The notes under the pieces are model-generated. The model ran no database searches. It had not been told where the DNA came from and saw nothing but the letters and a program-made list of their open reading frames with translations. The position numbers were made by a program, and so were the translations under genes. A stretch of DNA of 64,000 nucleotides from a virus. Taxonomy: Duplodnaviria; Caudoviricetes. This document shows positions 5,681 through 62,150 of the stretch, piece after piece (within the stretch, counting starts at the first letter, position 1; every line of letters begins with the position of its first letter). The DNA lies in IMG/VR virus record IMGVR_UViG_3300036783_000183, positions 1 to 64,000 of that record. One strand, given 5' to 3'.

Positions 5681-8045
5681 TGCCGTGCCCGGATACGCCC
5701 CGCCCGGCGTTCCTTGCCCGTCCATGCCTCGCCTAGACGGCCCAGCCTAACCTCGACCAGACAGGCCTCGCCTAGACAGGACGGCCCAGCGCTGCCCAGC
5801 CTAGCCTCGACCAGACAGGCCGTCCCATGCCCTGACGGCTACGCCCGGCAGTGCCTTGCCCCGTCAGGCCGAGCCTTGCCATAACGGCCGCGCCATGCCC
5901 AGGCAGGCCCCGCCTCGCCTCGCATCACCGGCCGAGCCCGGCCTCGCCAGGCCTCGCCTCATCATGCAAAGCCACGCCACGCCAAGACGGCCTTGCGATG
6001 ACGTGCCCTGCCGTGCGATCGCAGCCCTGTACTGCCCAGCCTTGACGGCCTGGCCGAGCGACGCCATGACAACCTAACCGCGCCCTGCCGATCCGGCCGC
6101 GCCTAGCCTCGCCGAGCCGACCCACGACAAGCCACGCCAAGACCGCCTCGCCACGCCGAGCCTTGACTCGCCATGCCTGGCCTTAACCGCCGCGCCAGGC
6201 CCGGACGGGCCTTGCTTTGCCGGGCCTCACCGGCCACGCCACGCCTGGACCCGTCTAGCCCTGCCGGGCCGAGACAGCCGCGCCGTGCTGCGCCAAACCT
6301 TGCCCGGCCAGGCCAGGACTAGCCTCGCCTAGACGGCCGCGATGAGCCGTACCGTGCCCGGACCTGACATGCCATGAGTAGCGATGCCCGGCCTGCCCCG
6401 CCGAGAGCTGCCATGCCCGGCCCTGCGCTCCAAGACGCGCCTGACCAAACCTGCCTCGCCAAGCCGCGCCATGCCCAGCCTTGCACGGCCAGGATAGGCC
6501 GAGCCGAGCCAGGACAGCCACGCAACGCCGTGCCCGGACCAGCCAAGCAGCCAGCGCCATACCGCACCTGGACAGCCCGGACTGACCGCGCCGAGCCGTG
6601 CCCCGCCTACCGAGCCGCGCCCTGACCTGACGGCCGAGCCGATCCGTGCCTTGACTCGCCACGCCTTCGCAAGCACTGCCTGGACGGCCAGGCCGAGCCC
6701 TGCCTGGCACGGCCTCGCCGTGCCTGGTCAGGCACTGCCGCGACGGCCCCGCGAACCATGCCTTGCCTTGACGCGCCCCGTCTAACGCTGCCTCGACGGC
6801 CCGGCCACGCCTTGCCGTTGCTTGCCTTGCCGCGCCTAGACGGCCCCGCGAAACCCGGCCGGGACGGGCACCGCCTGGCCGCGCCTAGCCCTGACGGCCC
6901 CGCCAAGCCGAGCCTCACCATACCTCGCCATGCTGCCCGTCCAAGCCTCGCCTTGACGGCCTGACACCGCAATGCCCCGGCATGCCATGATCAGCCCCGC
7001 CATACGCTGACGGCCATGCCGGGCCAGGCCAGGACTCGCCTAGCCATGCAGGGCCTTGCCTTTCCGGCCGCGCCGGGCCACGCGGTGCGATGCAGCGTCA
7101 TGCCTTGCCTTGACGGCCTGGCCAGGACGTGCTGTCCCGAGCCCTGCCTTGCCTCTCCGGCCTTGCCGTGCTGAGACGAGCCTTGCCCAGCGGTCCACGC
7201 CAAGTAAAGCCAACCCGCCACGCCCTGCTGCACCCTGGCAAGACGCGCACTGCCCTGCGGTGACGGCCTGGCTATACCTTGCCTGGCCTCGCCTCGCCAT
7301 CCCTGGCCACGCCCCTCCGGCCCAGACGTGCCGCGCCAAGACTAGCTGCCGCGATCCGCGCCATGCGAAGACAGCCGCCCATACCTCACCCGGACTCGCC
7401 GTGCCAGGATCATGCCATAACGGCCTCGCCATGCCGGGCCCGGCCAGGCCGTGCCTAGCCTTGACGGCCGTGCCGAACGGTGCCCGGTACTGCCGGGACG
7501 GGCGATGCCTATCCGGCCACGCCAAACCGTGCCTTGACCGGATAGGCCGGGCTACGCCTGCCGCGCCTGGCCGAGCGACCGTCGCCGTGCCCAGCTGAGC
7601 CTCACCTCGGCAACCAGCCGGGACAGGCCCTGCCAGGCCTTGCCGTGACCATCCTGGCCTTGACGGCACTGCCGAGCCCTGCCGAGCATCGACGAGCCGC
7701 GCCATGCCTAAGGCACTGCGCCCTGCCGAGACGGCCCTGCCGCCTATGCCGAGCTATGCCGTGCTGCGCAAGCCACGCACTGCCTTGCCCCTCCAGCCGG
7801 TCCCCGCCGTGCCCAGCCATGCTGAGAAATGCCACGCACTGCGTCACCAGCCGGGCCCATCGATACGATCCATTCCTTGACTGGACGGCCGTAGCCAAGC
7901 CGAGCACAGCAACCCACCCGCGCCTTGCCTCGCCTGCCGAGCCGAGCGGCACGCAGCCGATCTGCCCGCGCTCAGCTAAGCCGCGCCATTCCGGCTCAGC
8001 CTCACCGCGCCCAGCCAGGACAGGCCACGCTCCGCATCGCCTCGC
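5681..8045 (-). repeat. GGY-NN pentamer array 1 (putative guide-RNA/vrRNA array, roughly 40 units)
   Basis: Continuous 5-nt periodic NNGCC on + (GGC/GGT-NN on -); delimiter [G/A]AC[G/T]GCC at 5736, 5780, 5834, 5883, 5986, 6044, 6683, 6742, 6795, 6839, 6893, 6955, 7009 etc.; the ORFs called here are low-complexity artefacts. Confidence 0.9.
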
Positions 8046-8060
8046 TATTCCTCCGCAAGT

Positions 8061-10247
8061 TTATAGCACATCCGCGTCGTCGGGCAGCTCGTCGCCGTCC
8101 TTCAGGGCCGCCTCGCGGCGGACGCCGACCACGCGCGGGGTCTTGTAGCTGGCCGGGGCGTCATGCGTCGCCCATTTGTTGATCACATCCACTTCCCCAT
8201 CGGCCAGCACGTGCGGGGTGCCGTGCTCCTCGTCCTCCAGGACCGGGTGCTCGCGGGCGCGGGCCTGCTGGCGGGTCCGGGCGGTGCGGCGGAACAAGCT
8301 GGCCTCGCTCGGCATGCCCTTGCGCTCCTCGTCGGACTCCGGCGGCCGGTCGGACTCCTCGCCGGGGCCCGGCTCCTCGTCTTCCGGGCCCTCGGGCGGC
8401 GCGTTGGGCGGCTCCTCCTCGGCCTGCTCCTGCTCCTGCTCGTCCTCGGGCCCGGGGGCCAGGGCCAGCAGCGGGCCGCCCGCCGGCGGCTCGGTGCCGA
8501 GGCGGGGCAGCGGCATGCCGCCCGTGCTCGGGCCCTGCGGCATCCCCTCGACCTGGGCGACGGGGGCGAAGTCGGCCTCCAGGTCCTCGGGCACCGGCAG
8601 GCCCTGGTCGCGCAGCGCGATGTAGACCTGCTTGCGGGTCTCCTGCTCGGCCACGGCCTGGGCGACGGCCTCGTCCTGGGACCGGGCGACCTCCTCGTCC
8701 AGGTCGATCTCCAGGTTGCGGGTCCGGGTCCGCTGGCTGATCGGGATGCCGGACGCGCGCAGCGCCTCGACGAACTGGCGGGTCGCGTCCTCGTCCTTCA
8801 GGTTCAGCACCTTGAACCGGCGGTCGGGGACCAGCAGCTTGGGCTGCTCGACGAGGTGCTTCTCGCCGGTCTCCTCGTCCTGCTCCAGCACCTCCTCCAT
8901 GATCACGTAGCGCTTGCCGCCGTGCTCGCGGTAGTCGTAGTGCTCCTGCGCCTCGGCCACGACCATGGCCCGCTGCCGGAAGTGCCGGGCCTGGAAGCGC
9001 TGGTACTTGGCCATCAGCATGGTGACCAGTTCCTTGTTCAGCGCGTCGGCCGCGTACGTCTGGCCGGACTGGGCGCCCATCAGGAACGTGCGGGACAGGC
9101 CGAACACCTGCAGGATCGAGTCCTCGATCCGCTCGAAGTCCGGGGTCAGGTCGGGCATGTTCTCGCGGCCGAGCACGGGCAGCATCTCGACGGCGAAGTT
9201 GTAGATCAGCGCGCGGAAGTCGCCGGCCAGGGCGGCGTCCAGGGCCAGCTCGAAGTTCTCCAGGTCGTCATCGGTCGGGATCCACGGCTGGGAGGTGCCC
9301 AGGTCGGTGGCGCTGGCGCCGAGCTTGCAGAGGATCAGCGGGGTGTACAGCCGGTCGGCGATCGAGTCGAGCGCGGTGTTGAGCATCTCCTTCTGCAGCA
9401 TCGAGCGCATCGCCCGGGTCAGCAGCGGGACGCCGCGCACGTTGAACGTGTCGCCCCGGAACTTCAGCTGCTTCAGCAGGATGTTGGACACCGGCATGAA
9501 GGTGTTCTCGGCGGTATAGGCGCTCAGCTCGGGGTACTCCGCGATCAGCCGGTTGTACTCCCAGGCGGGCTGGCGGGTCTGCAGGATCTGCCGGATGGTC
9601 CAGGGCAGCCGGATGAAGTAGCGGGGCTCCTTCAGGAACGGGCTGCGCTCGACCTTCACGTCATCGGGGTTGAGCAGCTCCTCGTCGTCCCAGATGCCGA
9701 GGTCCTCGTTGAAGGTGGCGAACGGCCAGGCCTCGCCGGAGGTCCAGTACTCCCGGCCGATGTCGACGGTGAACTCCTCGTAGTCGAGATGCTCCTCGTT
9801 GAAGAACAGGTCGCCGTAGAAGTCCTCCAGCCGGGGGTCCTTGCACTCCAGGTGGTCGCCCATGGTCGGGAACTTGCTGAAGATGTCGACGCAGGACCCG
9901 ATGATCGGGTCGGTCTGGTACAGCAGCCGGCAGAACGCGCGGACCTTGGCCAGCTCCTCGTTCTGGGAGAAGTCGTAGGGCAGGTTGTTCTGCCGCCAGT
10001 AGAACAGCGGGTCGCGCGGGCGCCCGGTGGCGAACTGGATGTCGCCGAAGCCGCCGGCCGCGCCGCCCCCGCCGCCGCCGCCGTAGGCGCCCGTGCGCCG
10101 CATGACCGAGCGGTTCTTGCGGGCCTCGGCGACCTCGGGTGTCATCGTCCCGGCCCGCTCGGCGCCCAGCGCCAGCATCCGGCTCATGCCCTCGCTGACC
10201 TTGCGGTCGCGGTCCAGAGCGGCGGCGGCGGAGAACTGGAGCTTCAC
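8061..10247 (-). CDS. Portal protein
   Basis: 728 aa; core CRLLYQTDPIIGSCVDIFSKFP, GVPLLTRAMRS, LYTPLILCKLG typical of large actinophage portals; acidic C-terminal tail; GTGA overlap with upstream gene. Confidence 0.8.
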   Translation of the reverse strand: MKLQFSAAAALDRDRKVSEGMSRMLALGAERAGTMTPEVAEARKNRSVMRRTGAYGGGGGGGAAGGFGDIQFATGRPRDPLFYWRQNNLPYDFSQNEELAKVRAFCRLLYQTDPIIGSCVDIFSKFPTMGDHLECKDPRLEDFYGDLFFNEEHLDYEEFTVDIGREYWTSGEAWPFATFNEDLGIWDDEELLNPDDVKVERSPFLKEPRYFIRLPWTIRQILQTRQPAWEYNRLIAEYPELSAYTAENTFMPVSNILLKQLKFRGDTFNVRGVPLLTRAMRSMLQKEMLNTALDSIADRLYTPLILCKLGASATDLGTSQPWIPTDDDLENFELALDAALAGDFRALIYNFAVEMLPVLGRENMPDLTPDFERIEDSILQVFGLSRTFLMGAQSGQTYAADALNKELVTMLMAKYQRFQARHFRQRAMVVAEAQEHYDYREHGGKRYVIMEEVLEQDEETGEKHLVEQPKLLVPDRRFKVLNLKDEDATRQFVEALRASGIPISQRTRTRNLEIDLDEEVARSQDEAVAQAVAEQETRKQVYIALRDQGLPVPEDLEADFAPVAQVEGMPQGPSTGGMPLPRLGTEPPAGGPLLALAPGPEDEQEQEQAEEEPPNAPPEGPEDEEPGPGEESDRPPESDEERKGMPSEASLFRRTARTRQQARAREHPVLEDEEHGTPHVLADGEVDVINKWATHDAPASYKTPRVVGVRREAALKDGDELPDDADVL

Positions 10248-11371
10248 GCGGGAGCCCTCCGGCTGCCCCGGATCTGGTGCTGGCTCAGCCAGGCCGTGTC
10301 GTGCCGGCGGACGTGCATCGGGTCGAAGCGCTCAGGCTGGTCGTACAGCGTGCAGCCGGGCCCGTCGTGATCGTGGGCCGGGCACTCGATCGCGTGGCCG
10401 TAGGGCCGGTCGGTGGCGTGGTCCAGGTAGCCCTGGTACCAGGAGTCCGGCTCGCCGCGCATGTCGGCGTCCTCCAGCGGGGACGAACCGGGGTTCCGGT
10501 AGCCGGAGAAGCCCTCCGAGGCGGAGTAGCCCGCGTCGTACTTCGCGCGGTGATGCGGATCGTCGCCGGTCGTCAGGTACGCCATCCGGCGCGCCGCCTC
10601 GATGCCGTGCTCCTTCAGCCAGCGGTCGTCCTCGGCCGAGCGGCCCGGGTCGATGTCAGCCTGCTCGATGCCCGGGACGACAGGATAGGTGTTGCGGGCA
10701 CCGGGCAGACGGGGCTTGTGATAGGGCCACTTGCATTGCGGGCATTCAGTAGCGTTGTCGGGCACCGCTGACCGGCACCGGGGGCAGTCCCGGCTCTGGG
10801 CGGCCTGGCGGACCAGCCGCAGGACCGAGGGCGACATGCCGGAATGCAAGATGGCCAGGTGCCGGATGTAAGCGTCCTCGCCGAGCAGGTCCCCGGCCAG
10901 GGTGCGGTAGCGGCGGGCGGCGGCGCGGGCGGAGGTCTTCTTTTTCGGCGGTGGCGGGCCTTCCGCTTCGTCTTCCGGACCGCCTTCTTCTTCCGCCTCT
11001 TCCCCAGGCTCACCGCCTTCTTCGTCCTCATCACCGAACGGCGGCCCTTCTTCCTCGCCCTCCGCGCCCGGGGGCATGCCCTCGCCGCCCTCCATGCCGG
11101 GCGGCATCCCCTCTTCTCCTTCCATGCCCGGCGGGGGCATGGCGCCCATGTCCGGGCCCACGTCGGTGGGCGCGCCCATGCCCGGGGCCTGGGGCATGCC
11201 CGGGAAGGCGGGCTGGACCCGGACGATGAAGGACTGGCCGCAGAAGGCGCAGTCGATGCCGCCGTCCGAGCGGCCGGTGATCTGCCCGCTGCCGCAGAAC
11301 GGGCAGTGGCTGCACAGCACGGGATCCCCCGGGTCGTGCGCGACCTTGACGAACCTGGGATCGAGCTGCAT
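10244..11371 (-). CDS. Zn-ribbon, acidic/Pro-Gly-rich head-region protein
   Basis: ATG 11371 after GGAGGAGG; CSHCPFCG..CAFCG and CPRC..CPQC motifs. Confidence 0.7.
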   Translation of the reverse strand: MQLDPRFVKVAHDPGDPVLCSHCPFCGSGQITGRSDGGIDCAFCGQSFIVRVQPAFPGMPQAPGMGAPTDVGPDMGAMPPPGMEGEEGMPPGMEGGEGMPPGAEGEEEGPPFGDEDEEGGEPGEEAEEEGGPEDEAEGPPPPKKKTSARAAARRYRTLAGDLLGEDAYIRHLAILHSGMSPSVLRLVRQAAQSRDCPRCRSAVPDNATECPQCKWPYHKPRLPGARNTYPVVPGIEQADIDPGRSAEDDRWLKEHGIEAARRMAYLTTGDDPHHRAKYDAGYSASEGFSGYRNPGSSPLEDADMRGEPDSWYQGYLDHATDRPYGHAIECPAHDHDGPGCTLYDQPERFDPMHVRRHDTAWLSQHQIRGSRRAPA

Positions 11372-11404
11372 GCGGCTGCGCCTCCTCCCTCCTTCCGGGG
11401 CCGG

Positions 11405-11434
11405 TTTTGCATTACCAAGGTTTATTGATATTGT
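11405..11434 (+). promoter_or_regulatory. Repeated promoter/operator, copy 1
   Basis: TTTTGCAT-TACCAAGGTTTATTGATA-TTGT; imperfect inverted repeat TAYCAA-N6-TTGATA; upstream of + cassette. Confidence 0.75.
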
Positions 11435-11466
11435 GGGGGTACACACCGACGAGACGGAGCACCGAG

Positions 11467-12027
11467 ATGACCACCACCACCAAGGACCAGCTGGACACGG
11501 GCCAGCTGAGCGTGCTGAGCGCGGTCAGCCAGCTGAACGGCGAGCGCCGCACCACCAACAACAGCCAGGTCGCGAACCGCGCCCGGGTGAGCCGCACCTA
11601 CGCGGGCAAGACTGTCCGGTTCCTGGCCGGGCGCCGGCTGATCACCGACACGGCCACGGGCAGCGCCCCGCACTGGCGGATGACCGCCGCAGGCAAGGCG
11701 CTCCTGGCCGGAGGCCAGGCCAGCGAGCCGACCGGGATCCCCGCCATGCTCATCGCGTACTTCGAGCGCAAGCACTTCGAGGGCCCGAGGCAGACCCCGA
11801 TGATCACCGAGATCTGGGGCAATGGCACCCCGTGGCAGGGCGTGAGCCCGACCGAGGCCACCTACACGAACATCCGGGCCCTGAAGCGGGCAGGCGCCAA
11901 GTCCCTCGGCATCGTCGCCTACGGCAGCCTGCCCGCCGACTTCACGGTGGCCGAGCTGCTGGACGAGGCGGACAAGCCGCTGCTCGGCGGCGCCATCATC
12001 GGATCACGCACCTGGAAGGCACGGTAA
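11467..12027 (+). CDS. Winged-helix DNA-binding protein
   Basis: QLSVLSAVSQL..NSQVANRARVSRTYAGKTVRFLAGRRLI wHTH pattern; GGAG RBS. Confidence 0.6.
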   Translation: MTTTTKDQLDTGQLSVLSAVSQLNGERRTTNNSQVANRARVSRTYAGKTVRFLAGRRLITDTATGSAPHWRMTAAGKALLAGGQASEPTGIPAMLIAYFERKHFEGPRQTPMITEIWGNGTPWQGVSPTEATYTNIRALKRAGAKSLGIVAYGSLPADFTVAELLDEADKPLLGGAIIGSRTWKAR

Positions 12028-12515
12028 TGAACGAAGAGACTGTCGACTGGGCCGGGCGCACGTTCGGCCAGCTGACCTCGGACGAGCGGCGCCGCGTCAC
12101 GCGGGCCGCCGCCGCCCGGATGCAGGACGAGCTGACCGCCGCCGCCTCCGCGATCGGCCGCATCATGGACCAGGCCGCCGGGCCGGAGCGCACCGCCCCG
12201 GACTTCAGGCTGGGCGACCGGGTGCGGTTCCCCCAGGGCGACGAGACTGGCACCATGCTGGACGGCAGCGTCGTCCGGGAGCCCTGGGGCCGCGAGGGCA
12301 CGGTCAAGTGCGTCAGCATCCGGACCATCCCGGACGAGCGCATGTTCGCCCGGCAGGTCACGGCCGTCGAGCTAGTCGAGACCGTCGAGAGCATCTACGA
12401 GCGGCTGCGGGCCGGCCAGGTGGCCGCTAAGGACATGACCTGGGACGAGGCCGAGGCGGCCGTGGACCTGGCGCAGGGCACCCAGACCCGGGTGAGATGG
12501 AGGAACTGGACATGA
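12027..12515 (+). CDS. Hypothetical protein
   Basis: TAATG coupling; MNEETVDWAG..; GC3-rich codons. Confidence 0.6.
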   Translation: MNEETVDWAGRTFGQLTSDERRRVTRAAAARMQDELTAAASAIGRIMDQAAGPERTAPDFRLGDRVRFPQGDETGTMLDGSVVREPWGREGTVKCVSIRTIPDERMFARQVTAVELVETVESIYERLRAGQVAAKDMTWDEAEAAVDLAQGTQTRVRWRNWT

Positions 12516-12802
12516 GCACCCCCGACCCCGACTTCGCCGCCATCGGCGAGGAAGCCCGGCGCATGTTCGGGCAGCTGTTCCCCTCCCCGGCCCAGGTCGA
12601 GGAGCAGCTGCACGCAACGCTGACCCACGCCCGCGCGATCGGCGGCGGCGCGGGCGCGCTGGCCGCCGGGCTCGTCGAGGTGATGGAGGTCGTGCACGGG
12701 TGGAACCTGCGAGCAGGCGAAGACCCGGCCGCGCAGATCAGCATCGCCGAGGCCCGGAGCGCGATCGTGGAAGCGATCGCACGCGGCATGGGGGAAGCCT
12801 GA
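12512..12802 (+). CDS. Hypothetical protein
   Basis: ATGA overlap, GGAGG RBS. Confidence 0.6.
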   Translation: MSTPDPDFAAIGEEARRMFGQLFPSPAQVEEQLHATLTHARAIGGGAGALAAGLVEVMEVVHGWNLRAGEDPAAQISIAEARSAIVEAIARGMGEA

Positions 12803-13284
12803 TGAGCACCCCGAAGCGGCGCCCGGCCGGGAACCAGGGCCAGCGGCCCTGGCAGCCGATGCAGCGGGCCGTCCAGGTCGTCCCGGACTCGCTGCAGGCG
12901 ATGGCCGCCCGGAAGCCGGACATCGCGGCCATGATCGAGAGCGGCAGCGAGGTCTGGCGCAACGACCGGTACGTCTGCCACGTCCGCCGGAACCCCGAGG
13001 GCGAGGTGACGGTGCTGTCCGTCCGGCGGGACGACCGCAAGGCCATCTGGGACTGGCGGCACCTGATGCTGATCAAGAACGAGATCGCCGGGGAGGAGAT
13101 CGAGGCGTTCCAGATGCTGCCGGCGAAGAGCCGCACGGTAGACAGCGCCAACCAGTACTGGATATGGTGCCTGCCGCCAGGGGTGAAGATGCCGATCGGA
13201 TTCGAGGAGCGGGTCGTGGCCGAGCAGGACCCGGAGTTCCCGCTGTCGAGGCAGCGGCCGTTCGCCGAGGGGGAAAACCTCTGA
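12802..13284 (+). CDS. Conserved phage protein (DUF7694-like)
   Basis: TGATG coupling; LSVRRDDRKAIWDWRHLMLIKNEIAGEE.EAFQMLP..VDSANQYWIW. Confidence 0.55.
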   Translation: MSTPKRRPAGNQGQRPWQPMQRAVQVVPDSLQAMAARKPDIAAMIESGSEVWRNDRYVCHVRRNPEGEVTVLSVRRDDRKAIWDWRHLMLIKNEIAGEEIEAFQMLPAKSRTVDSANQYWIWCLPPGVKMPIGFEERVVAEQDPEFPLSRQRPFAEGENL

Positions 13285-13310
13285 CCGGAGAGGACCTGGC
13301 GGGCTGGGCG

Positions 13311-13619
13311 GTGGTCATCACCGCCCTGGCGGTGTACGCCGCCGCCTGGCTGTTCTGCGCCGCCTTCGTGCTCGGCACCCTGGTCACCGGCTGGGGGCCG
13401 CACGACTACCTGAAGATCCGCGAGGCGCTCGTGCCGCTGTGGTGCGTGCTGGCCCGGGACCAGGCGACAAGCGGCCGACTGGCGGGGGTCCTGGAGCGCC
13501 GCGCTCAGGAGGCCGGAGCGTACGAGCCCCGGCACGCCGCGCCGCCGGAGAAGCGGCTAGCCGACGACCGCGACCTGACCTGGATGCTGTACATGCGGCG
13601 CTGGCCGCCGTATCTATAA
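13311..13619 (+). CDS. Small membrane protein (start uncertain)
   Basis: Hydrophobic VVITALAVYAAAWLFCAAFVLGTLVTGW. Confidence 0.45.
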   Translation: MVITALAVYAAAWLFCAAFVLGTLVTGWGPHDYLKIREALVPLWCVLARDQATSGRLAGVLERRAQEAGAYEPRHAAPPEKRLADDRDLTWMLYMRRWPPYL

Positions 13620-13622
13620 ACT

Positions 13623-13934
13623 GTGAGAAATTCCTTCAGCCTGAGCCGGTACCGGACGGTCGGCGTCATCATCGACCTGCACCAGGCCGAGCTGCGGCAC
13701 CGCAAGCGGCACAAGGGGGATCCGAAGTGTCCCTGCGGCGGGGAGCACCCGGTCGAGGTCGAGGTGGACATGGAGCGGGCGGACCTCGTGCCGGTCCCCG
13801 AGATCCCGGTGTTCCTGGGCATCGGCGAGGCCCTCCAGCGGCTGCACGAGCTGGCGCACCCCGAGGGCACGCTGTACGTCCAGAACTGCCGCGAGCCGGA
13901 GTGCCGGGAGATCCAGGACTCCTGGCTCCCGTAG
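13623..13934 (+). CDS. Hypothetical Cys-containing protein
   Basis: 103 aa, CPCG..CREPEC. Confidence 0.5.
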   Translation: MRNSFSLSRYRTVGVIIDLHQAELRHRKRHKGDPKCPCGGEHPVEVEVDMERADLVPVPEIPVFLGIGEALQRLHELAHPEGTLYVQNCREPECREIQDSWLP

Positions 13935-13941
13935 CCCCCGA

Positions 13942-13971
13942 TTTTGCATTATCAAGGTTTATTGATATCCT
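13942..13971 (+). promoter_or_regulatory. Repeated promoter/operator, copy 2
   Basis: TTTTGCAT-TATCAAGGTTTATTGATA-TCCT. Confidence 0.8.
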
Positions 13972-14004
13972 GGTGTCATCAGCACGACGCACCGAGGAGA
14001 GACT

Positions 14005-15036
14005 GTGAGCACCGAGACCGACACCCGCACCGATGAGCAGCTGGCCGCCGACCCGCACGCGTTCGATGAGAAGCTGGCCGGCCTGTACGACGCCTGGGCG
14101 AAGGCTACCGCCGCCCGCGACCGCGCCTGGGAGCAGATCCACACCGCCGCCGGCGATCACCGGGACTACCGGGGCCGCAGCTCCCGGGCCTGGGGACGCA
14201 CCCACACCGAGGTCGAGCAGACCGTCCGGCAGATGGCCGCTCACAGCGTGCCGCTCCCGGCGTCCATGGGCTTCCGGCAGACCCCGGGCGACCTGCTGGT
14301 AGCGCTGCGCGACGCCGACGCCTCACTGGCCCAGGCCGCGCTGGCCGTCCACGAGATGGAGGCCATCTACGCCCGGCCGGAAAACCGCTGGCAGCGGTTC
14401 TTCCCGTGCACCAACAGCGACGGGCACATCCACGACAGCTACCGTGGCTGCCCGAGCGTCCGCTGGGACACCCCGATGGCCTGGCGCCCGGACCTGTCCG
14501 GCCTGACCGTCGAGGAGGCCGTGCAGATGCCGCCGAAGGGCCTGGGCCCGGCGCTGTGCAGCATCTGCTTCCCGCTGGCCCCGGTCGAGCTGAAGTCGAT
14601 GACCACCGGCCAGGTCGAGAAGGAGCGCACCCGCGCCGAGCGCGAGGCCGCGAAGGCCGTCCGCGAGCTGGCGAAGGCCGCCAAGCAGCTGGCCGGGGAC
14701 GAGCAGTTCCGCACCGAGGGCCGCTTCGGCGAGACCGTCACCACCGTGGCCAGGTGCAAGGAGATCATCCGCCAGGCCATCGACGAGGAAGTCCAGCTGG
14801 AGTACTACAGCCGCCCCGGCGCCGAGCAGGAGTGGCAGGGCGACAGCGAGAGCTTCGCCCGGGTGCGCGGCAACGTCGCCGACCGGCTGGCCGAGCTGCA
14901 GCGGGACGCCGGGCGCGCCGCCGCCGTCCTGACCGGACGCGAGGCCGCCCACGAGGGGTGGGGCGCGACCCAGGCCGCCATCACCAAGATGCAGCAGAAC
15001 AAGTACAAGAGCGCACGCAAGGAATGGGGACTCTGA
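14005..15036 (+). CDS. Hypothetical protein (343 aa)
   Basis: GTG after GAGGAG; first gene after promoter copy 2. Confidence 0.7.
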   Translation: MSTETDTRTDEQLAADPHAFDEKLAGLYDAWAKATAARDRAWEQIHTAAGDHRDYRGRSSRAWGRTHTEVEQTVRQMAAHSVPLPASMGFRQTPGDLLVALRDADASLAQAALAVHEMEAIYARPENRWQRFFPCTNSDGHIHDSYRGCPSVRWDTPMAWRPDLSGLTVEEAVQMPPKGLGPALCSICFPLAPVELKSMTTGQVEKERTRAEREAAKAVRELAKAAKQLAGDEQFRTEGRFGETVTTVARCKEIIRQAIDEEVQLEYYSRPGAEQEWQGDSESFARVRGNVADRLAELQRDAGRAAAVLTGREAAHEGWGATQAAITKMQQNKYKSARKEWGL

Positions 15037-15311
15037 TGAGCGAGCTGCCCGAGAAGAGCGAACCCGAGATGTCCGACGACAAGGCGTACAGCATCGTGCA
15101 CCTGCGCCGGGCCGAGATCGAGGATCCGGCGGTGCGCGCCAGCTGGCAGGCTCGCGGGTACGCCACGCTGGGCCCGGTCGAGGGCCACGACCCGCATGTC
15201 CGGTGCCCGATCTGCTCGACCGACGAGCCGCCGGAGGACTGCGCGCTGTGCGGCCAGGGCCCCTGCGCGTTCACCGGGAAGGCCCGGCGCGCGGCGGACG
15301 AGCAGCCATGA
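15036..15311 (+). CDS. Hypothetical Zn-finger protein
   Basis: TGATG coupling; CPIC..CALC. Confidence 0.55.
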   Translation: MSELPEKSEPEMSDDKAYSIVHLRRAEIEDPAVRASWQARGYATLGPVEGHDPHVRCPICSTDEPPEDCALCGQGPCAFTGKARRAADEQP

Positions 15312-15649
15312 GCCGCACCGGCAAGCGCAGGCGGCGGCACCCGGGGCGGGCCAGCTACCGGGAGCAGGCACGGGCCCAGACGCTGGACGAGGCCCAGGCG
15401 GTCTACCTGGACCACCTGCACCGGGAAGACCCCGGCCAGGCGCGGGACTGGAACAGCGCCCCGCCGCCCGGCCGCAGGCGCCAGGGGCGGCCGGCGATCC
15501 CCCGGACCGCGCAGCGCGGCGGGGACCGCTACGAGCGGGCCAGCGTGTCCGACATCGAGCGCGTCTACACGGGCGCCCCGGACACGAAGCTCTTCTACGT
15601 CACCACCGCCGAGGGCAAGATCGTCATGCTCAAGATCACGAAGGACTGA
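15308..15649 (+). CDS. Hypothetical basic protein
   Basis: ATGA overlap; MSRTGKRRRRH. Confidence 0.55.
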   Translation: MSRTGKRRRRHPGRASYREQARAQTLDEAQAVYLDHLHREDPGQARDWNSAPPPGRRRQGRPAIPRTAQRGGDRYERASVSDIERVYTGAPDTKLFYVTTAEGKIVMLKITKD

Positions 15650-15650
15650 G

Positions 15651-19012: not shown

Positions 19013-19014
19013 GC

Positions 19015-20118: not shown

Positions 20119-20161
20119 GCCCTGCCTCCCGGAGTTCTCTATCCTTCCGGGGGACAGGGCA

Positions 20162-20260
20162 ATGCCTGCCGGGCCTCGCCTCGCCGAGCCGCACCTCGAC
20201 GGCCGCACCACGCCGGGCCCTCCCTCACCGGGCCCTGCCTAGCCTTGACTGCCTTGCTGC
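20162..20260 (-). repeat. GGY-NN mini-array (about 2 units)
   Basis: Delimiters at 20198 and 20247 enclosing 8 pentamers + 2 nt (49 nt). Confidence 0.8.
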
Positions 20261-20263
20261 CTG

Positions 20264-21193
20264 CTAGCTGAGAGGATTCACGACCGGAGTGTCCGGCGGA
20301 GGCTCCTCAGTTTCCGCTGACGGCTTCCAGCACCATGCCGGCCCCATGTTGAACAGCCCGATGACCCAGCTGCCGGGCAGGCCCGATGACGGCGGCCTCG
20401 GCTCGTAGCTGGGCAGGTCGTTGCTGACGTAGTACGTCGGCACCGCGAAAGCCCGGACCAGCGCGTCGCCTTCCTGGAGCCACGTCCAGATGCCACGGTT
20501 CATGTCCGGCACGTCGGGATGGCCGGGGAGCTGGTCGGGGTCGATGCTCGGGTAGCCGACCGGCGGATCCGGCCAGATGACCGGCGGGTAATAGATCGGG
20601 TGCTCGGGATGCGCGCCCTCCGGCGGCGTCGGCGGCGGCAGCACGATCGGGTGCGCCGGGTGACCGGGTGACGGCCAGATACCCGGGGGCGGGCCGCCCG
20701 ACGCAGGCGGGTAGTAGATCGGCGGCGTCGGCGTCGGCTGCGGCCCCGGAAGACCGATGTCCACGTACGGGGGCAGGTAGATCGGATGCGTCGGCACCCC
20801 TGGAGCAATCGCATCGGGAGGGATCACGATCGGATGCGCCGGCTCGACCGGCGGAAGGACGATCGGGTGTGTCGGCACCCCTGGAGCGATGGCCCCGGGA
20901 GGGATCACGATCGGGTGCGTAGGCTCACCCGGAAGGTAGATCGGGTGCGCCGGGACGCCAGGCGCAATCGCGTCAGGAGGGATCACGATCGGGTGCGCCG
21001 GGACCGGCGGGTAGTAGATCGGCGGGGTGACGCTCGGCGGCGGGCCGCCCGGGGCGATCGGGTGGGCGGGCCAGCCGGGCACCCCGAAGCCGGGGTCTAC
21101 CGGCCCGGTGGGCGGGTAGTAGATGGGCGGAGTGGGTGTTCCGCCAGGTCGCTCTGGCACCCACGCTTCGACGATGACGTACTGCCGGCCCAT
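20264..21193 (-). CDS. Proline-rich repeat protein (P[AT]HPI repeats)
   Basis: 309 aa; about nine PxHPI motifs, PAHPIVIPPDAIAPGV twice; AAGGAG RBS. Confidence 0.75.
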   Translation of the reverse strand: MGRQYVIVEAWVPERPGGTPTPPIYYPPTGPVDPGFGVPGWPAHPIAPGGPPPSVTPPIYYPPVPAHPIVIPPDAIAPGVPAHPIYLPGEPTHPIVIPPGAIAPGVPTHPIVLPPVEPAHPIVIPPDAIAPGVPTHPIYLPPYVDIGLPGPQPTPTPPIYYPPASGGPPPGIWPSPGHPAHPIVLPPPTPPEGAHPEHPIYYPPVIWPDPPVGYPSIDPDQLPGHPDVPDMNRGIWTWLQEGDALVRAFAVPTYYVSNDLPSYEPRPPSSGLPGSWVIGLFNMGPAWCWKPSAETEEPPPDTPVVNPLS

Positions 21194-21254
21194 GGCTCTC
21201 CTTTTTCTCTATGATTACTGATTCACCGATGATGCTACAGGTACCTTGATTGCT

Positions 21255-22680
21255 TTACCACGCCGGGCCGAGCCTCACCAGGACCTGCCTAGACGCAACT
21301 GCCTTGCCGCGCGATGCCGAGACGAGCCCCGACGAGACGTACTCACCCTGCCCAGCGCCGACTGCCATGCCCGGCGTTGCCGGGCCAAGACCCGCCGTTC
21401 CCCGGCGAGCGGTACCACGACTGCCTTGCCCGGCCAGGCTGCGATGTGCCCCGCCTTCCCGTACCACGCCCGCCAGGCGATGACCCACCGCGCCACGCGG
21501 TGACCAGCCCTGCCTACCCGCACCCGGCCAAGACGGCCTCGCCGCCCTTGCCTCGCCAAGCGACCCACGCCAGGCCCAGATCGGCCGCGACTGCCGTGCC
21601 AGGCTAGGCCAGGACTGGACGTACCGAGACCCGCCGTGCCATGACTGCCTCGCCCTACGCTCCGTGCCGGACCGAGCGCCACCGGGCCCAGGCATGCCGA
21701 GCCCCGCGTTTGCCTGCCCAGCCTTGCCCTGCCAAGCCGCGCTCTGTCATGCCTAGCCGGAGCCCTGCCTAGCGCTGACTGCCCTGCCTCGCCAGGCCAA
21801 ACAGCCCTCGCCGGGGAGTGCCCCGCCTGGACGGCCGAGCCACGCCATGCGCTCCCGCCGTTCCGCGCCGTGCGCCGCCACGTGGTGCCAGGACACGCCG
21901 CGCCTGGCCTTACCTGCCGCGCCAAGCCTTGCACAGCCAGGGCGCGCCGTGCCTTGCGCCTCCGGCCGCGCCAAGCATCACCTCGCGACGCCACCCCGTG
22001 CCTAGCCCGGCCATCCTGCCGGGCCCCGCCATGCCTTGCCGCTCTGCGCCAGGACTCGCACGACCCGGCCAGGCCTAACCTGCCCTGCCGTGCCATGCCT
22101 CTCCTGGCCCGGACATGCCAAGCCTTGACTGCCGTGCCGCACCGTGCCAAGCGATGCCCTGCCCAGCCGACCAGGACGAGCCTGCCCCGCCAGGCCGGGC
22201 CTTGCCGAGCATCGCCCTCCCCGCACTGCCCAGACGGCCTCACCCGTCCGTGCCAGGACGCACCTGGCCAGGCTTTGCCTCGACGGCCGGGCCAGGCCTT
22301 GCCTTGCCTTGCCATGACACGCCAGGACACGCCACCGCCACGCCAAGCCGAGACGGCCATGCCTTACCGCGCCGTGCCGAGCTATCGGCGACGGGCCTTA
22401 CCACCCCGGCTGTCCCAGCCTCGCCTGGCCTTGACCGGCCGCGCCACGCCTTGACTGCCATGCCATGCCGTCCATGCGCCGCTACCCGGGCGTCCCGGTC
22501 CAAGCCACGGCTGCCTCGCCTGGCCTTGCCTGGCCCGTCCAGGCGGTGCCTGGCGATGCCTCTCCTGCCATGCGAAGCCCAGCCCAGCGTTGCCAGGCCC
22601 TGGGCCGCCATGCCATCCGGCCCTGCGCTGCCGCGCACCGCCCAGCCCAGCGGGGCCTCGCCACGTCCAGCCGTGCCATA
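21255..22680 (-). repeat. GGY-NN pentamer array 2, directly downstream of the RAMP-like operon (putative vrRNA array, roughly 25 units)
   Basis: 5-nt periodicity; delimiters at 21297, 21360, 21419, 21532, 21589, 21643, 21777, 21830, 22233, 22282, 22352 etc. Confidence 0.9.
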
Positions 22681-22686
22681 AACAAG

Positions 22687-22725
22687 CCGGGGCCAGGACG
22701 GGCATGGCTGTCGTCCTGGCCCCGG
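22687..22725. other. 14-bp hairpin between partner gene and array 2
   Basis: CCGGGGCCAGGACG-11 nt-CGTCCTGGCCCCGG. Confidence 0.7.
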
Positions 22726-22742: not shown

Positions 22743-23231
22743 TCAGGCTTCGAGCACGAGCGGCTCGTCACCGCCGTTGTCGCCGTCGTCGCCGTCATCT
22801 GACGGCGGCGTGTCCCGGCGCACCATCCGGATGAAGTCCTCGAAGTGGTCGTACTTGCGCCGCAGCGCCCGCCACTCCATCTCCATCTGGCGCTTCAGCT
22901 GCGCGGTCATGACCTCGTTCGCCTTGATCTCGTCCAGGGGAACGTAGGCCCGGCCGCCCGGGGCCGAGGGCACCGGCATCGAGTGGAACACCCGGATCTG
23001 CTCCGGGTGCCCCCGCGCGCCCACGTAGACCTCGCGGATCACGCGGACGAGCTGCCGGGCCTGCTGCACCCGGTACTTCGGGCCCGCGACATCATCGCGC
23101 CACTCGAAGTGCGAGTGCAGCAGGTGCGCCGGATCCGAGGCGGCCTCGACGATCATCCTGGCGGTCAGGATGCCGCCGTTGGCCGCCCGGATCGCGAGCA
23201 GCTCGGCTTCGATCTCAGCCTTGGTCGCCAC
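22743..23231 (-). CDS. Conserved small partner protein of the RAMP-like gene
   Basis: 162 aa; LTARMIVEAASDPAHLLHSHFEWRDD..KYRVQQARQLVR; overlaps the stop of the RAMP-like gene. Confidence 0.75.
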   Translation of the reverse strand: MATKAEIEAELLAIRAANGGILTARMIVEAASDPAHLLHSHFEWRDDVAGPKYRVQQARQLVRVIREVYVGARGHPEQIRVFHSMPVPSAPGGRAYVPLDEIKANEVMTAQLKRQMEMEWRALRRKYDHFEDFIRMVRRDTPPSDDGDDGDNGGDEPLVLEA

Positions 23232-24159
23232 TGCCGGCGTCCTCGGCGAGGCCCTCGCCCTCGACGGAGCCCTCGATCGCGGCCTTGTCCTTGGCCTTGG
23301 CCTTGGGCAGCTCCTCGGGCGGGGTGTCGAGCAGCGCGAAGTCGTCCAGGGTCAGGATCTCCCCGTCATTCTCGTCGAAGGCGTAGGCGGACAGGTCCGG
23401 CGCGTACTCGGCCGGCAGCTCGTCCATGATGCCGATCGCGTCGTCGTGGTCGGCGATCCGGAACGTGCCGAACTCCCCGTTGCGCTCCGGCCGCCATTCC
23501 CCGACGCCCACGCCCATGCCGCCCGCCTCGATGAGCGAGACCAGCGAGTCGCGGTCGATCAGGTTCTTGGTGTAGGAGACGTACAGGGTCGCCGACCACC
23601 TGGGGAAGCAGCCCCGGTAGCGCAGGTCGGCCGGGTGGTTGACGCCGGCCAGCCGCACGTAGTCCTCCCGCATCATCGGCCGCCCGTCGAGCACGACCAT
23701 GCGGCTCGGCTCGGTCGGCACGGAGACGCCGTAGAAGAACATGAACTGGCGAAGCTCGGTCATCTTGACCTGCTTGCCGTAGTAGCGCCCGGCGCCGATG
23801 GTGGCCATCTTGAAGGCCATGGCCGGGATGCCGAACCGGACCTCGCCGGTCTCGCCGTTGACGCCGGCCCGGTACAGCGAGGCCAGGAACTCCCGGCGCG
23901 GATCGCGCTTCTCGGGCTGGCGCCGCACGCCCTGCTGGGCGGCGAGCATCTGCGTCTTGGCCTTCTCGGAGAACCGGCTGACGATCAGCGGCGAGGTGCC
24001 CACGATGTCGATCGCGAGCAGCTCGGTCTCGATCGGCTTGATGACCAGCTTGGCCGGGCCGCCGGCCGGGGCGGCCGAACGGCCGCGAGCGGCGCGGGTA
24101 GTGCTGACGGTCTGGCCGTCTGCTGCCGGAGCTTCCGGCGTAGCCTGAGGTGCAGGCAT
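23215..24159 (-). CDS. RAMP/Cas7-like protein (candidate Vipr effector)
   Basis: 314 aa; IDIVGTSPLIV (first RRM strand), FGIPAMAFKMA (cf. Cas7-group IPGSSxKG), FPRWSATL, C-terminal Gly-rich loop EAGGMGVGVGEWRPERNGEFGTF; adjacent GGY-NN array. Confidence 0.7.
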   Translation of the reverse strand: MPAPQATPEAPAADGQTVSTTRAARGRSAAPAGGPAKLVIKPIETELLAIDIVGTSPLIVSRFSEKAKTQMLAAQQGVRRQPEKRDPRREFLASLYRAGVNGETGEVRFGIPAMAFKMATIGAGRYYGKQVKMTELRQFMFFYGVSVPTEPSRMVVLDGRPMMREDYVRLAGVNHPADLRYRGCFPRWSATLYVSYTKNLIDRDSLVSLIEAGGMGVGVGEWRPERNGEFGTFRIADHDDAIGIMDELPAEYAPDLSAYAFDENDGEILTLDDFALLDTPPEELPKAKAKDKAAIEGSVEGEGLAEDAGSGDQG

Positions 24160-24231: not shown

Positions 24232-24261
24232 ACAATACTGATACGCGAAACGCATTGTCAA
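24232..24261 (-). promoter_or_regulatory. Sigma70/HrdB-type promoter of the RAMP-like operon
   Basis: On - strand TTGACA (24261-24256)-N18-TATTGT (24237-24232); GAGGAGGG RBS before ATG 24159. Confidence 0.65.
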
Positions 24262-33385: not shown

Positions 33386-36300
33386 TCAAGGAACCATAGC
33401 AGTGTGCCGCGCGGCGCGCTCGGTAACGGTGCCCTGCCGCTCGGCGTGGCCGTAGTAGCGGATCTCCGCCGGGACGTGAGTCAGGCCCAGCTCCAGCGCC
33501 GCGTCCCGGCGGTGGTTGCCCTCATTCAGCTCCGGGTCCTGCCCGTGGTCGACGGTGATGAACACCGGGTTGCGGATCCCGTTCTCGGCGATGTCGCGCT
33601 TGAAGTCCTCCCACTTCTCGCCCTGCCGGTTGCGGTGCTCGCCGGGTCGCTCGCCGCGTGCGCCGCGCATATTCGAGATTTCCGAAACAGGAATCATCCC
33701 GCGCTCGCTGCGGGTGATGTGGCTCGGGTCGCCCACCGTCCCCTCGTACTCGTGCACCTCCAGCTGCGGATCGGCCGCGCCGACCTTGCGGACCCGGTGC
33801 AGCGGGATCCTGGCGTGGGTCGCGGCGTAGCCCTCGGCCGAGGCGTGCCAGGCGTCGTCCGGGTGGTAGTCGATCTGGTAGGTGTCCGCGCGGTCGCCCC
33901 CGGGGGTGTGGTGCCGCCAGCGCTCGTCCGGGGCCGCCGAGGCGCGCGTGTAGCCGCTGTGCGCCTGGAAGTAGCCGCGCTGCCGCGCCAGCTCCATCTC
34001 ACTGGGATGGGCGACCCGGTACAGGTGCTCCGGGGGCTGGCCGGCCAGCAGCAGCCCGTGCGGGCCCTGCGCGATATGGCCGCCGTACAGCTCGCCGGAG
34101 GACGGCAGGACGGGCTTGTGCTCAGACGGGGGCGCGGGCTGACTCAGCACCTCGCTGAGCCGCTGCAGCAGCCTCTCCATCTCGTCATCCGGGTCGGCGG
34201 CAGCGGTCTTCACGGGCGACGGCTGGTAGCTGAACTCGTCGGTCCAGTCGCTTTGCGCCAGGCGGGCATGCGCAGCGGGCACGGTCTTGCTGTAGACCTT
34301 CTCACCGGGGCGGAAGTCCTGCGGGTAGTGCGGGGTCAGGCTCACCCAGTCGCCCGGCTGGATCTCCCCGCCGGCGCGGTACAGCGTGACGGGGTGATCG
34401 GGCTTCCCGCGAGCCCTGTCGATGATGCCCCGGAGCTGATCGGCCGGGCCGTAGAAGCCGGACCCGTACCCGTACTCGCGGTCGTAGTCCGGGTGGTCAG
34501 CCAGTTCGTGCAGGGCGGGCCCGGTCCCCGGGCGCTCAGCCGTCTGGTGCGGGAGCGCTGCCGTCGCCTGCCCGGGATGCCAGCTGGTGCCATCGGAATA
34601 ACTCACGCCGTGCTCCGAGCCCGGGTCGTGCGGGCTTATCCGCTCCGGGCCGATGTCCTGGGTGGCCATCCAGGCGGGCTTCTCGCCGCTCTTCGGGTTG
34701 GTGTAGGTCCGGTCCTCGGTCAGCGGCAGGCCGGACACGTCGATCTTGTACATGTGGTGATCGGCCATCTCCCGGCGCCAGGCGTCGGTGCCGGGGTGCC
34801 CGTGCTCGGGCGGCACGTGATAGACGCGATCGGTGGCTGTCAGGTAGACGGCCCTCGGCGGGTCATCGGGCAGCATGCCCGCGCTGGGCCGGGCCGGGAT
34901 GCCGTGCGCCAGTGTCTGCTCGTGGTACTCCGGCATCTGCACCCGGTACATGTGCTCGCCGGGCTGCCCGGTCCTGGTCTCCGGCGGCTGCTTCCAGTGC
35001 GCCCGGCCCCGGCCATAGGTAATGGCATGCCGCCGGATCACCGTCACCGGGTCGTGGGAAGCGTAGCCGCCCACTCCCCGGCCCTCCTGGACCTCACCCT
35101 GGGGCTCGACCTCGTAGACCCGCACCGGGCCCTCGTGGTAGTCATCGGTGCCCCACAGCCGCGCCTGGTCCGGGTCGGTGGTGAAGTGCACCCGGCGGTT
35201 CTCCAGGTTGCTGCGCAGCGTGGCACCGTCCGGGATCTCGGCGCGGGTGCCATGGTAGTAAGCGGCGGTCTTGCCCTGAGTGCGGAAGTCCTTGACCAGC
35301 ACCGGCACCGGCTTGTCGTAGCCCGCCTCGTTCAGCGCGAATGTCCGGTGGTGGCCGTTCCACAGCCAGGAGTTCTCGTCATCGTGGACCAGGGTGATCG
35401 GGTGGCTGGGCGGGTAGCTGTGCGTGTCGCCGCTCATCCCGCCGTGGCGCCGGGGCTGGTAGCCATGCTGGCGGATGTCCTCGGCCAGCTCGCTGATGTG
35501 GCGAGACCCGCTAGGATCCTGCATGCGCCAGGCCTCACGGCTGGCATACGGCAGAAGGTCGCGCGGGTGGATCCGCTGGACGTACTGCCGGTACAGGGCC
35601 GCCGTCTTCGTGCCGCGCGGCCGGGGCGGCTCGTAGCCCTCGTCGTGCTCGTCGCGGGCCAGCCGGTGCCGCTCCGCGCCGGGGAAGAACAGGTGCTTGT
35701 GATCGATCCAGTCGCCGACCCGGCGGACGTGCTGCAGCAGCGGCTCGCCGTCGTAGCCGACCCCGGCGATCTCGCCCCGGACCAGGTGGGCGGTCTCGTC
35801 AGGCTTGTCCTCGCCGTAGTACCGGTTGCGCTCGGCCTTGACCAGCCGGCCCTGCATCTCCTCGCGCGGGTCGTTGTCGGGGCCCTCGGTGTCCAGGTCG
35901 CAGTCCGGCTCGCACCACTCGTCATGGACGTGACCACGGTCCAGGCCGTGGTCGATATCCGGGTTGCCGTGCTTGTTCAGGTCGTAGACACTGACGCCGG
36001 TCTCGTGGTAGCCACCTGCCGGGCTGAAGGAGCGCTCGCTCTTCGGCCAGTGGCCGAACCGGAGGTAGAGACCCGTCTTCTCCGAGCCGCTGTAGTCCCA
36101 GACGGCCGTGACTGCCAAGCCCTGCCCAGACCCGCCGGGCCTTACCCGTCCAAGCGACGCCTGGCCGAGCGACAACTGCCGTGAGCTTGCCTGCTTGTCC
36201 ACCCGGCTGCGCCTGACTTTATCCCACGAAGCTGCAAAGCCGGGATGCAGTGCGCCCTCGTCCTTCAGGTCCTGGATCTCATCTTGCTTAAACCAGGCAT

Positions 36301-61636: not shown

Positions 61637-61893
61637 GGCGGTTCTCCAGGTGTCTGCTCCCCAGCAGCGTACGCGTCGGCTGTCTCCTCGCACCAGCCGT
61701 AGCCGCAGTGCAGGCAGCGCCGGCACAGATGCTCCCGGAGGATCCGGCTGTTGGGATCATCGGTCCAGCAGGGGGAGCCGACCACAGCGATCATGTGATG
61801 CAGCGCATCGATCTGCTCGGCCAAGCATTTCGGACAATTTCGATCGGGAGCATAGTTCAACAGGATCCCGGGCATGCCGAACGGCTGCGTCAT
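61633..61893 (-). CDS. Small Zn-binding protein
   Basis: CPKC..HLCRRCLHCGYGW. Confidence 0.55.
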   Translation of the reverse strand: MTQPFGMPGILLNYAPDRNCPKCLAEQIDALHHMIAVVGSPCWTDDPNSRILREHLCRRCLHCGYGWCEETADAYAAGEQTPGEPP

Positions 61894-61897
61894 CCCT

Positions 61898-62150
61898 CAC
61901 CTGCCAAACCTGACCATGCCGCGCCGAGCACAAACGTGCCGATCTGCGCCGTGCCTTACCCAGACTGCCAGGCCAAACCTCGCCACGTCCCGCCGCACTC
62001 CGCCTCGACTGCCTAGCCCCGCCTGAACGGACCCCGCCCGGACATGCCTCGCTAAGCAAAGCCTCGCCGCGCCAGGCCTCGACTGCCATGCCTCACCGCG
62101 CCCCACAGTGCCAGACCCCGCACTCCGCACCTCGCCGCGCTGCGCCGCGC
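61898..62150 (-). repeat. GGY-NN mini-array (about 4 units)
   Basis: Delimiters GACTGCC at 61963, 62007, 62081; spacings 44 (7 pentamers) and 74 (13 pentamers). Confidence 0.85.

Follow-up and report, generated by a model that had tools for sequence, protein, structure and literature searches.

A 64,000-nucleotide stretch of phage DNA from a soil metagenome (positions 1 to 64,000 of IMG/VR record IMGVR_UViG_3300036783_000183; Duplodnaviria, Caudoviricetes), hereafter the window, carries long arrays of the pentamer GGYNN, in which N N are two variable bases, together with a gene for a protein of the Vipr family. These pentamer tracts are, in all probability, arrays of the guide RNAs (vrRNAs) of a VIPR system of the staggered type, in which the guides are separated by a repeat that is one base too short. 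By analogy with the published systems, the likely role of such a system would be the silencing of competing phages or of other mobile elements. Positions below are those of the window unless the contig is named.

VIPR, first described in 2026, is a CRISPR-related, RNA-guided silencer of DNA. It combines a small RAMP protein, Vipr, with an accessory gene, vap, and with vrRNAs built from 9–16 GGY/NN pentamers; the NN bases read double-stranded DNA and skip every third base. In nature it is directed at rival phages, at satellites and at other VIPR loci, and some vrRNAs are encoded by satellites or at a distance from vipr (bioRxiv 10.64898/2026.04.26.720920). The same preprint describes ribozyme-interspersed arrays, with hammerheads between the guides (types I and V), and 'staggered arrays' of vrRNAs that overlap by 1 nt; the legend of its fig. 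S18 speaks of 'processed vrRNAs' with coinciding ends, and, as far as we draw on its text, small-RNA sequencing confirmed the ribozyme and single-guide architectures only, not the staggered one (10.64898/2026.04.26.720920). In the solved filament one protomer sits on each 5-nt repeat, each GGY is held jointly by two adjacent protomers, and the G-loop and a thumb arginine contact G1, G2 and Y3 (10.64898/2026.04.26.720927; PDB 36pp). VIPR and its staggered architecture were thus already known; what is new here is a guide-rich member with a lineage-specific variant of the delimiter.

A delimiter that shifts the register

On the array strand the sequence is made of runs of GGYNN pentamers, and the repeat finders returned the 5-nt period and its multiples only. 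The sequence-only reading had proposed that this register is interrupted by a 7-nt motif, [G/A]AC[T/G]GCC on the plus strand and GGC[A/C]GTY on the minus strand, and that the interruptions lie 5n+9 nt apart. The motif was recovered at all 22 positions that it had listed, in one case as a variant (at 5834, GACGGCT, which is AGCCGTC on the minus strand), and the unit that it had spelled out as an example (20253-20198, minus strand) parses as written, the unit itself running from 20249 to 20201. The preferred spacing held as well: when occurrences of the strict motif GGC[AC]GT[CT] are taken, 29 of the 43 spacings of at most 80 nt leave a remainder of 4 on division by 5 (44, 49, 54, 59, 64 and 74 nt), against 20% expected (binomial p = 2e-11), and a systematic parse of the arrays upheld the enrichment instead of dissolving it. 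The motif is a property of the arrays and of one of their strands: the 6.35 kb of array sequence contain 69 copies on the array strand (10.9 per kb) and just two on the opposite one, and outside the arrays there are 0.58 copies per kb per strand, so that its density on the array strand is about 19 times that found elsewhere.

Three parts of the original description had to be recast. The 7-nt motif does mark a recurring break, but it is too strict as a motif, the invariant core being a 4-nt unit, GGCN, followed by G[T/G]C. The series 5n+9 is the right series of lengths, but it is better expressed as 5m-1: each unit has the structure [G(T/G)CNN][GGYNN]k[GGCN], with a total of 5m-1 nt, the units are contiguous, and lengths of 44, 49, 54, 59 and 64 nt dominate. 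The odd spacings (53, 58, 63, 57 and 62 nt), which had been listed correctly, are not the exceptions that they were taken for, since the same rule explains them: all 16 intervals with a remainder of 3 hold exactly one extra 4-nt unit, and three of the four intervals with a remainder of 2 hold two, although this check is partly circular because the parse used favours shifts of -1. A Viterbi phase tracker that charged an equal penalty for every kind of jump gave a net shift of -1 for 131 of the 149 register jumps (88%). In the logo of the delimiter core, the N of GGCN is C in 49% and A in 34%, and is followed by G, by T (56%) or G (44%), and by C; the scaffold G positions are 76–94% G and the Y position is 76–90% C. 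Boundaries of the forms GGCC-GGA and GGCA-GGT (the hyphen marks the break) are common too.

The parse yielded 76 units of 39–89 nt, which hold 8–14 dinucleotides each. Between units the delimiter logo shows no conserved sequence besides the 4-nt unit; neither units nor junctions form more stable structures than shuffled sequence does (junction z from -2.0 to 0.0); and Rfam at the gathering threshold gave no family anywhere in the window, hammerhead ribozymes like those known from between guides included. The NN positions are about 47% GC, in a genome of 70% GC, and their composition is near uniform; a comparison of NN with codon positions 1 and 2 of the phage's own genes gave a correlation of about 0.1, which is uninformative. 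In two places adjacent units share their 3' halves, at 5739-5836 of the window (CT TG GA TA TG) and at 70297-70414 of the contig (AC TC CG T[G/T] CC), which suggests tandem duplication of a unit and subsequent divergence of its 5' end. Similarity from guide to guide amounts to 8 related pairs, against 0–3 in shuffles, and comes mainly from these two adjacent duplicate pairs; it is too weak to build on.

The Vipr protein, its neighbour and the wider clade

Directly upstream of one of the larger arrays (A3 in Table 1) lie two overlapping genes on the strand of the array. The product of the first, a protein of 314 aa, is a Vipr-family RAMP with a predicted Cas7/Csm3-like fold. It belongs to phrog_4652 (E = 4e-31), and its best PDB sequence match is the Vipr of Escherichia phage SUSP1 (36pp_D), at E = 0.0018 when the protein is searched alone and 1.8e-7 when a profile of 30 sequences is used. 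The alignment, in which similarity is limited to the C-terminal ~60 residues, sets GVGEWRP against the GVGDWRP of the G-loop and R182 against the thumb R138. The AF2 model has a pLDDT of 80, and the top Foldseek matches are Csm3/Cas7 chains (E = 7e-6). For the vap-like product of the second gene the AF2 model (pLDDT 92) shows ~100 N-terminal residues that look winged-helix-like and, after them, a long C-terminal helix; the best VIA-align matches are the winged helices of forkhead, MarR, MecI and Fur, with Z of only 5–6, and Foldseek gave nothing significant for it. The model is compatible with, though no proof of, a DNA-binding vap like those of the preprint. Pfam and PHROG scans of the neighbouring genes showed no Cas family, and there was no nuclease, cas1/cas2 or hammerhead signal.

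The delimiter grammar is conserved among the relatives of this vipr gene. Two of them (L001 and L004), whose Vipr is 66–75% identical and whose gene order is the same, carry at the position equivalent to A3 arrays of 1.4–2.1 kb with GGC[A/C]-GTC breaks and units of 39–74 nt, and their register jumps are breaks of -1 in 34 of 37 and 50 of 52 cases, respectively. Among 80 IMG/VR loci that encode a Vipr relative, GGYNN arrays on the strand of vipr are present in 77; across about 70 loci 827 of 909 register jumps (91%) are of -1, and unit lengths peak at 49, 54, 44, 59 and 64 nt. A vap homologue stands beside vipr in 73 of 82 loci, in some of them with the array between the two genes. The logo of the clade is GGCA-GGC, with A in 82%, for which reason we regard the GTC start as a feature of the present lineage and the 4-nt break as the clade-wide rule. 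Arrays with the same grammar occur in two cultured phages, Gordonia phage UmaThurman and Mycobacterium phage Saal. When the phage collection was searched by megablast with the vipr locus, nothing matched.

In UmaThurman, gp40 (NC_031249.1 33362-33685; L005 4619-4942), annotated as 'hypothetical protein', coincides with the GGYNN array downstream of the Vipr homologue gp39; this coding-sequence call is probably spurious. The array itself covers record positions ~33,330-33,690 of this phage, whose host is G. terrae 3612; in Saal, a phage of M. smegmatis mc2 155, the array is situated upstream of gp51.

Comparisons between close relatives show how the arrays change. The arrays of L127 and L155, near-identical with 10 mismatches in 1,236 nt, differ by exactly one 44-nt unit, flanked by the repeated boundary GGCCGGAG, and L002 differs from L003 by a 62-nt indel that begins at a GGCAGTT break. 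Beside portal genes that are 86–92% identical in nucleotides, homology ends at the portal stop codon, and the arrays can be aligned only at ~65–75%, from the shared scaffold. Guide content is thus replaced rapidly, which also speaks for units as guides. An alignment of the arrays of L087 and L088 was discarded as meaningless, the contents of the two arrays being unrelated.

Guides, filaments and competing explanations

In the staggered model that we favour, the arrays would be transcribed on the strand of their upstream gene, and Vipr protomers would each take up one GGY, at intervals of 5 nt, and expose the two variable NN bases, which, following the published system, would read double-stranded DNA with every third base skipped. 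A unit would close with the one-base-short repeat, GGC plus one base (C or A here, A in most relatives), and the next would open at once with G[T/G]C. A 4-nt repeat cannot be bridged by a filament that advances in steps of 5 nt, and therefore one filament would end and the next would start there; the register break would split one transcript into many guides of 8–14 dinucleotides, with neither structured handle nor ribozyme, and cutting or trimming of the RNA may follow between filaments. The earlier suggestion that the arrays are multiplexed libraries of separate guides, each with about 16–28 informative bases, is supported by the Vipr-family RAMP that adjoins them, by units of 8–14 dinucleotides as compared with the 9–16 repeats of published guides, and, in the relatives, by a match that spans a whole unit (below) and the exact 44-nt unit indel.

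The arrays share with staggered VIPR, as far as the preprint describes it, a Vipr RAMP with a vap-like gene, GGY/NN guides on the same strand, the 1-nt overlap, the lack of a structured tail and a phage as carrier; guides in a 5-nt register that overlap by 1 nt are necessarily spaced by 5m-1. The differences are: (i) the first triplet after the break is here mostly GTC, not GGC, and the single base is C as often as A; (ii) one vipr gene serves as the only one for six dispersed arrays, some of them in structural operons and one in frame in an open reading frame (ORF); and (iii) the preprint text, in the parts on which we draw, gives neither a delimiter consensus nor statistics of unit length (10.64898/2026.04.26.720920). 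Type II VIPR, of Escherichia phage SUSP1 and a P. fulva prophage, uses the same protein family, with the GVG[D/E]WRP G-loop and the thumb arginine, the same GGY/NN code, guides of 9–16 repeats (8–14 dinucleotides here) and an accessory protein that is predicted to bind DNA, which the vap-like product here may do as well. In contrast to the present units, which have no tail between them, the vrRNAs of SUSP1 are separate RNAs of ~100 nt with an invariant 3' pseudoknot tail, four per locus. Class 1 CRISPR, with its Cas7 backbone, offers a more general parallel: RAMP protomers polymerise on guide RNA at a fixed step, an array holds many guides, and its content turns over fast between close relatives. 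However, there is here no repeat-spacer structure, cas1/cas2 or Cas6-type hairpin; each step of 5 nt carries 2 informative bases, as against 5 in a step of 6 nt in CRISPR, and the punctuation is a 1-nt shift, as against a repeat of 25–40 nt.

Target searches gave their clearest signal at the level of the clade. When 728 tracts of at least 8 dinucleotides, taken from all loci, were compared with the masked loci under the NNx rule, 17 real guides had near-matches at E < 0.1 under the 1-nt-skip rule, against 3–9 in the controls (skip-0, skip-2, reversed and shuffled). The two best of these matches fall in the vipr genes of other phages. A guide of L017 matches the vipr of L042 in 19 of 20 bases (GAx AAx AAx GGx GAx .. 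GGx ACx TTx AT, over the conserved ...EKKGDMGTF...), with all skipped bases at codon position 3, and the match takes in the whole run of full pentamers that two GGCA breaks delimit; a guide of L040 matches the vipr of L031 in 18 of 20 bases, also in frame. Judged from its sequence, the L017–L042 pair would be one case of a delimiter-bounded unit that acts as a whole guide, and it reproduces the published reading rule in staggered arrays. A wobble-phase test of the clade matches gave 39:20 for real guides, about 1:1 for shuffled and 8:28 for reversed ones; because base composition explains part of this bias, we take the test as weak support only.

For the guides of the present phage the searches were less productive. 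A scan under the NNx rule of its ~84 longer guides (at least 7 dinucleotides) against the 73-kb contig and the early loci gave best matches of 12/14 and 13/16, the same as the controls; in a 2.5-Mb set of related viral loci the best E was 0.03, with 3 matches at E < 0.1 against 0 in the controls, which is not significant. The scans at the scale of whole collections used exact matching only, so that their outcome reflects a limit of the search and is not evidence of absence. Within that limit, the viral contig collection gave 0 matches with two 10-dinucleotide guides and 59 with an 8-dinucleotide seed, none extending beyond chance, and the genome contig collection gave 0 in two scans. The metagenome contigs gave 0 and then one match, on a contig of 52% GC, which extends to 22/24; as its skipped bases fall at codon position 1, it was judged to be due to chance. 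Decoding the guides as degenerate peptides yielded nothing recognisable by eye.

Several observations weigh against a guide function as set out above. About 70 tracts are only 4–34 nt long, below the published guide range, because of which the arrays have to be regarded as partly degenerate; parts of them may have decayed, or may obey a rule that the parse does not capture. There is no significant target for any of the ~84 longer guides of this phage, and the clade-level signal is modest, shuffled controls also favouring the wobble phase as a result of base composition. A hairpin between the vap stop and A3 (Table 1) could stop transcription before it reaches the array. The locus sequence was located in soil DNA metagenome runs only and in no RNA run. 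Finally, our equation of these arrays with the published staggered ones is drawn from the text and a figure legend of the preprint.

The strongest competitor, for which we see a real but distinctly smaller chance than for the staggered model as a whole, takes up the original suggestion that GGC[A/C]GTY is a sequence-specific cleavage or capping site, so that a cut by Vipr (in the manner of Cas6), by the vap product or by a host RNase, and not the register shift, would define the guides. Some RAMPs of the related CRISPR family, the Cas6 proteins, are endoribonucleases. The bases at the break are moreover conserved beyond what a frameshift needs (GGC, A in 82% and then GGC in the clade; GGC[C/A]G[T/G]C here), and the 'processed vrRNAs' with coinciding ends in the preprint's legend would suit a cut. 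However, the triplets of the delimiter are themselves GGY scaffold, which leaves as sole added information a single base that varies between lineages (A, C or T); boundaries such as GGCC-GGA, GGCT-GTC and GGGC-ATC occur as well; no hairpin or other structure is found at the junctions; and the vap-like protein, as modelled, resembles a winged-helix DNA binder and not a nuclease. A register break accounts for the grammar just as well and needs no cleavage signal of its own, and we rank it above a cleavage motif because the junctions have no structure of their own and the only added base differs between lineages. A bolder version, in which register alone is the punctuation, so that one missing base suffices to partition a long read-through transcript among more than 70 Vipr filaments and neither a handle nor a ribozyme nor a specialised nuclease is needed, and in which the guide cassettes lie scattered in late and structural operons and in the gene of a polyvalent protein, we put forward tentatively and consider rather doubtful.

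That the arrays yield long unprocessed RNAs, and that some of them, such as the orphan arrays A1, A5 and A6, are not guides but sponges for the Vipr proteins of rival phages, or regulate in cis the operons that host them, seems improbable to us. It would suit the distance of five of the six arrays from vipr, inside structural or late operons and in one case in frame in an ORF, the want of targets for this phage's guides, the many tracts below guide size and the fact that VIPR systems target one another; but the orphan arrays keep the unit lengths and delimiters of the vipr-adjacent array, their NN content is equally diverse and fast-changing, which a sponge would not require, and published vrRNAs are likewise encoded away from vipr and by satellites. 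Still less can be said for pentanucleotide satellite DNA without function, or for protein-coding sequence, spurious or real, and we hold this to be very unlikely. ORFs of 130–360 aa do cross the arrays, UmaThurman gp40 is annotated over one, and two adjacent units look like tandem duplicates; yet coding periodicity cannot be reconciled with a period of 5 nt, the arrays keep to the vipr strand in 77 of 80 loci, and slippage would give shifts of +1 and -1 at random sites, not 88–91% of -1 at one motif with a regular spacing of 44–64 nt.

The contig, its arrays and their significance

The window is the first part of a single contig of 73,074 bp, with a GC content of 70%. The portal gene (8061-10247, minus strand) matches phrog_2833, and its product shares ~35% identity with portals from large myophages of Gordonia, Rhodococcus and Mycobacterium and 50–98% with those of many uncultured soil phage contigs of up to ~165 kb; because portal relatives sit on contigs of that size, the 73-kb contig is probably part of a genome of ~160 kb. 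By autocorrelation, the six arrays (Table 1) amount to ~6.2 kb, or 8.5% of the contig, five of them on the minus strand within the window and the sixth on the plus strand beyond it.

Table 1. Arrays, genes and signals of the VIPR locus and its surroundings (window positions, except for A6)
Feature	Position	Strand	Description	Basis
Array A1	5700..8060	-	~2.36 kb of GGYNN, flanked by the portal stop and by the start of giant gene 3-5648	period-5 scans and parse
Mini-array A2	20160..20265	-	a 49-nt and a 34-nt unit in an intergenic gap, with minus-strand genes on either side	parse
Array A3	21250..22700	-	~1.45 kb, ~33 tracts, directly downstream of vipr-vap	scan and parse
GC-rich 14-bp hairpin	22679..22723	-	between the vap stop and A3, followed by CUUGUUUAU	fold
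vap-like accessory gene	22743..23231	-	162 aa; overlaps the vipr stop	phrog_15946, E = 5e-23
vipr	23215..24159	-	314 aa; RAMP core at residues ~40-235; G-loop motif GMGVGVGEWRPE	
Promoter-like site	24232..24261	-	TTGACA-18-TATTGT, upstream of vipr	consensus match
Mini-array A4	36095..36185	-	91 nt: one 64-nt unit and two 9-nt stubs; in frame inside ORF 33386-38803	parse
Array A5	61890..62155	-	units of 39, 74 and 44 nt with GGCA-GTC delimiters; partial tracts on the flanks	scan and parse
Array A6	contig 69650-71615 (outside the window)	+	~2 kb; after plus-strand genes, at a convergent junction; strand opposite to the other arrays	

Each array has the orientation of its upstream gene; for A1 and A5 both flanking genes are on the minus strand. 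A1 comprises ~56 tracts bounded by 4-nt units, mostly GGCC-GTC, and no vipr gene adjoins it; its position beside the portal gene is occupied by an array only in relatives with at least 84% portal identity. A3, the one array of the six that adjoins vipr, begins 43 nt past the vap stop and has delimiters of the forms GGCA-GTC, GGCC-GTC and GGCA-GG[AT]. A4 corresponds to residues ~188–218 of ORF 33386-38803 and is placed at a module junction of this giant polyvalent protein: homology to the NUDIX-like module of the relatives stops at query residue 181–189, where A4 starts, and each relative continues with different modules. A4 may represent a guide that lies within coding sequence, or else a scar that module shuffling left behind.

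Around vipr, the promoter-like site is the sole sigma-70-like match in 20000-24500, against 0.2 expected. The stretch 22660-22750 (91 nt), which contains the hairpin before A3, folds with -46.4 kcal/mol (z = -2.5), and a strict terminator scan did not call the hairpin; attenuation, weak termination and a part in processing are all conceivable roles for it. Four soil DNA runs, searched over 5000-24500, gave fragmentary contigs only and no usable variants of the arrays.

Three further loci were seen in passing. ORF 3-5648 (minus strand), which encodes more than 1,880 aa and runs off the window, has an Arr-ms (rifampin ADP-ribosyltransferase-like) domain, and its homologue in L004 also has ParB_N and NUDIX matches; to judge from these domains, it looks like a polyvalent protein. 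Between A2 and A3, the 309-aa ORF 20264-21193 contains 2.8–3.1 copies of a 78–81-nt tandem repeat (20775-21022; 73–80% matches). In three relatives with portal proteins 97–98% identical (L127 11180-11989, L126 1590-2399 and L155 789-1598) the portal gene has an insertion of ~800 nt, a possible intein or homing-endonuclease insertion, which has no counterpart here (window ~9066-9068).

The known picture of VIPR is unchanged by these findings. They supply a quantitative grammar for staggered arrays, with a 4-nt GGCN break, units of 5m-1 nt, mostly of 44–64 nt, and a first triplet that is specific to the lineage, across ~70 actinophage-like loci, and the same grammar is present in UmaThurman and Saal, which are cultured and tractable. 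With ~8.5% of the contig given over to guides in six arrays, this phage would be a case of extreme guide multiplexing, and so minimal a delimiter could be useful for engineering multiplexed VIPR guides. If register alone should prove to be the punctuation, the supply of guides would be tied to late gene expression, and recombination between delimiters would be the route by which guide cassettes come and go.

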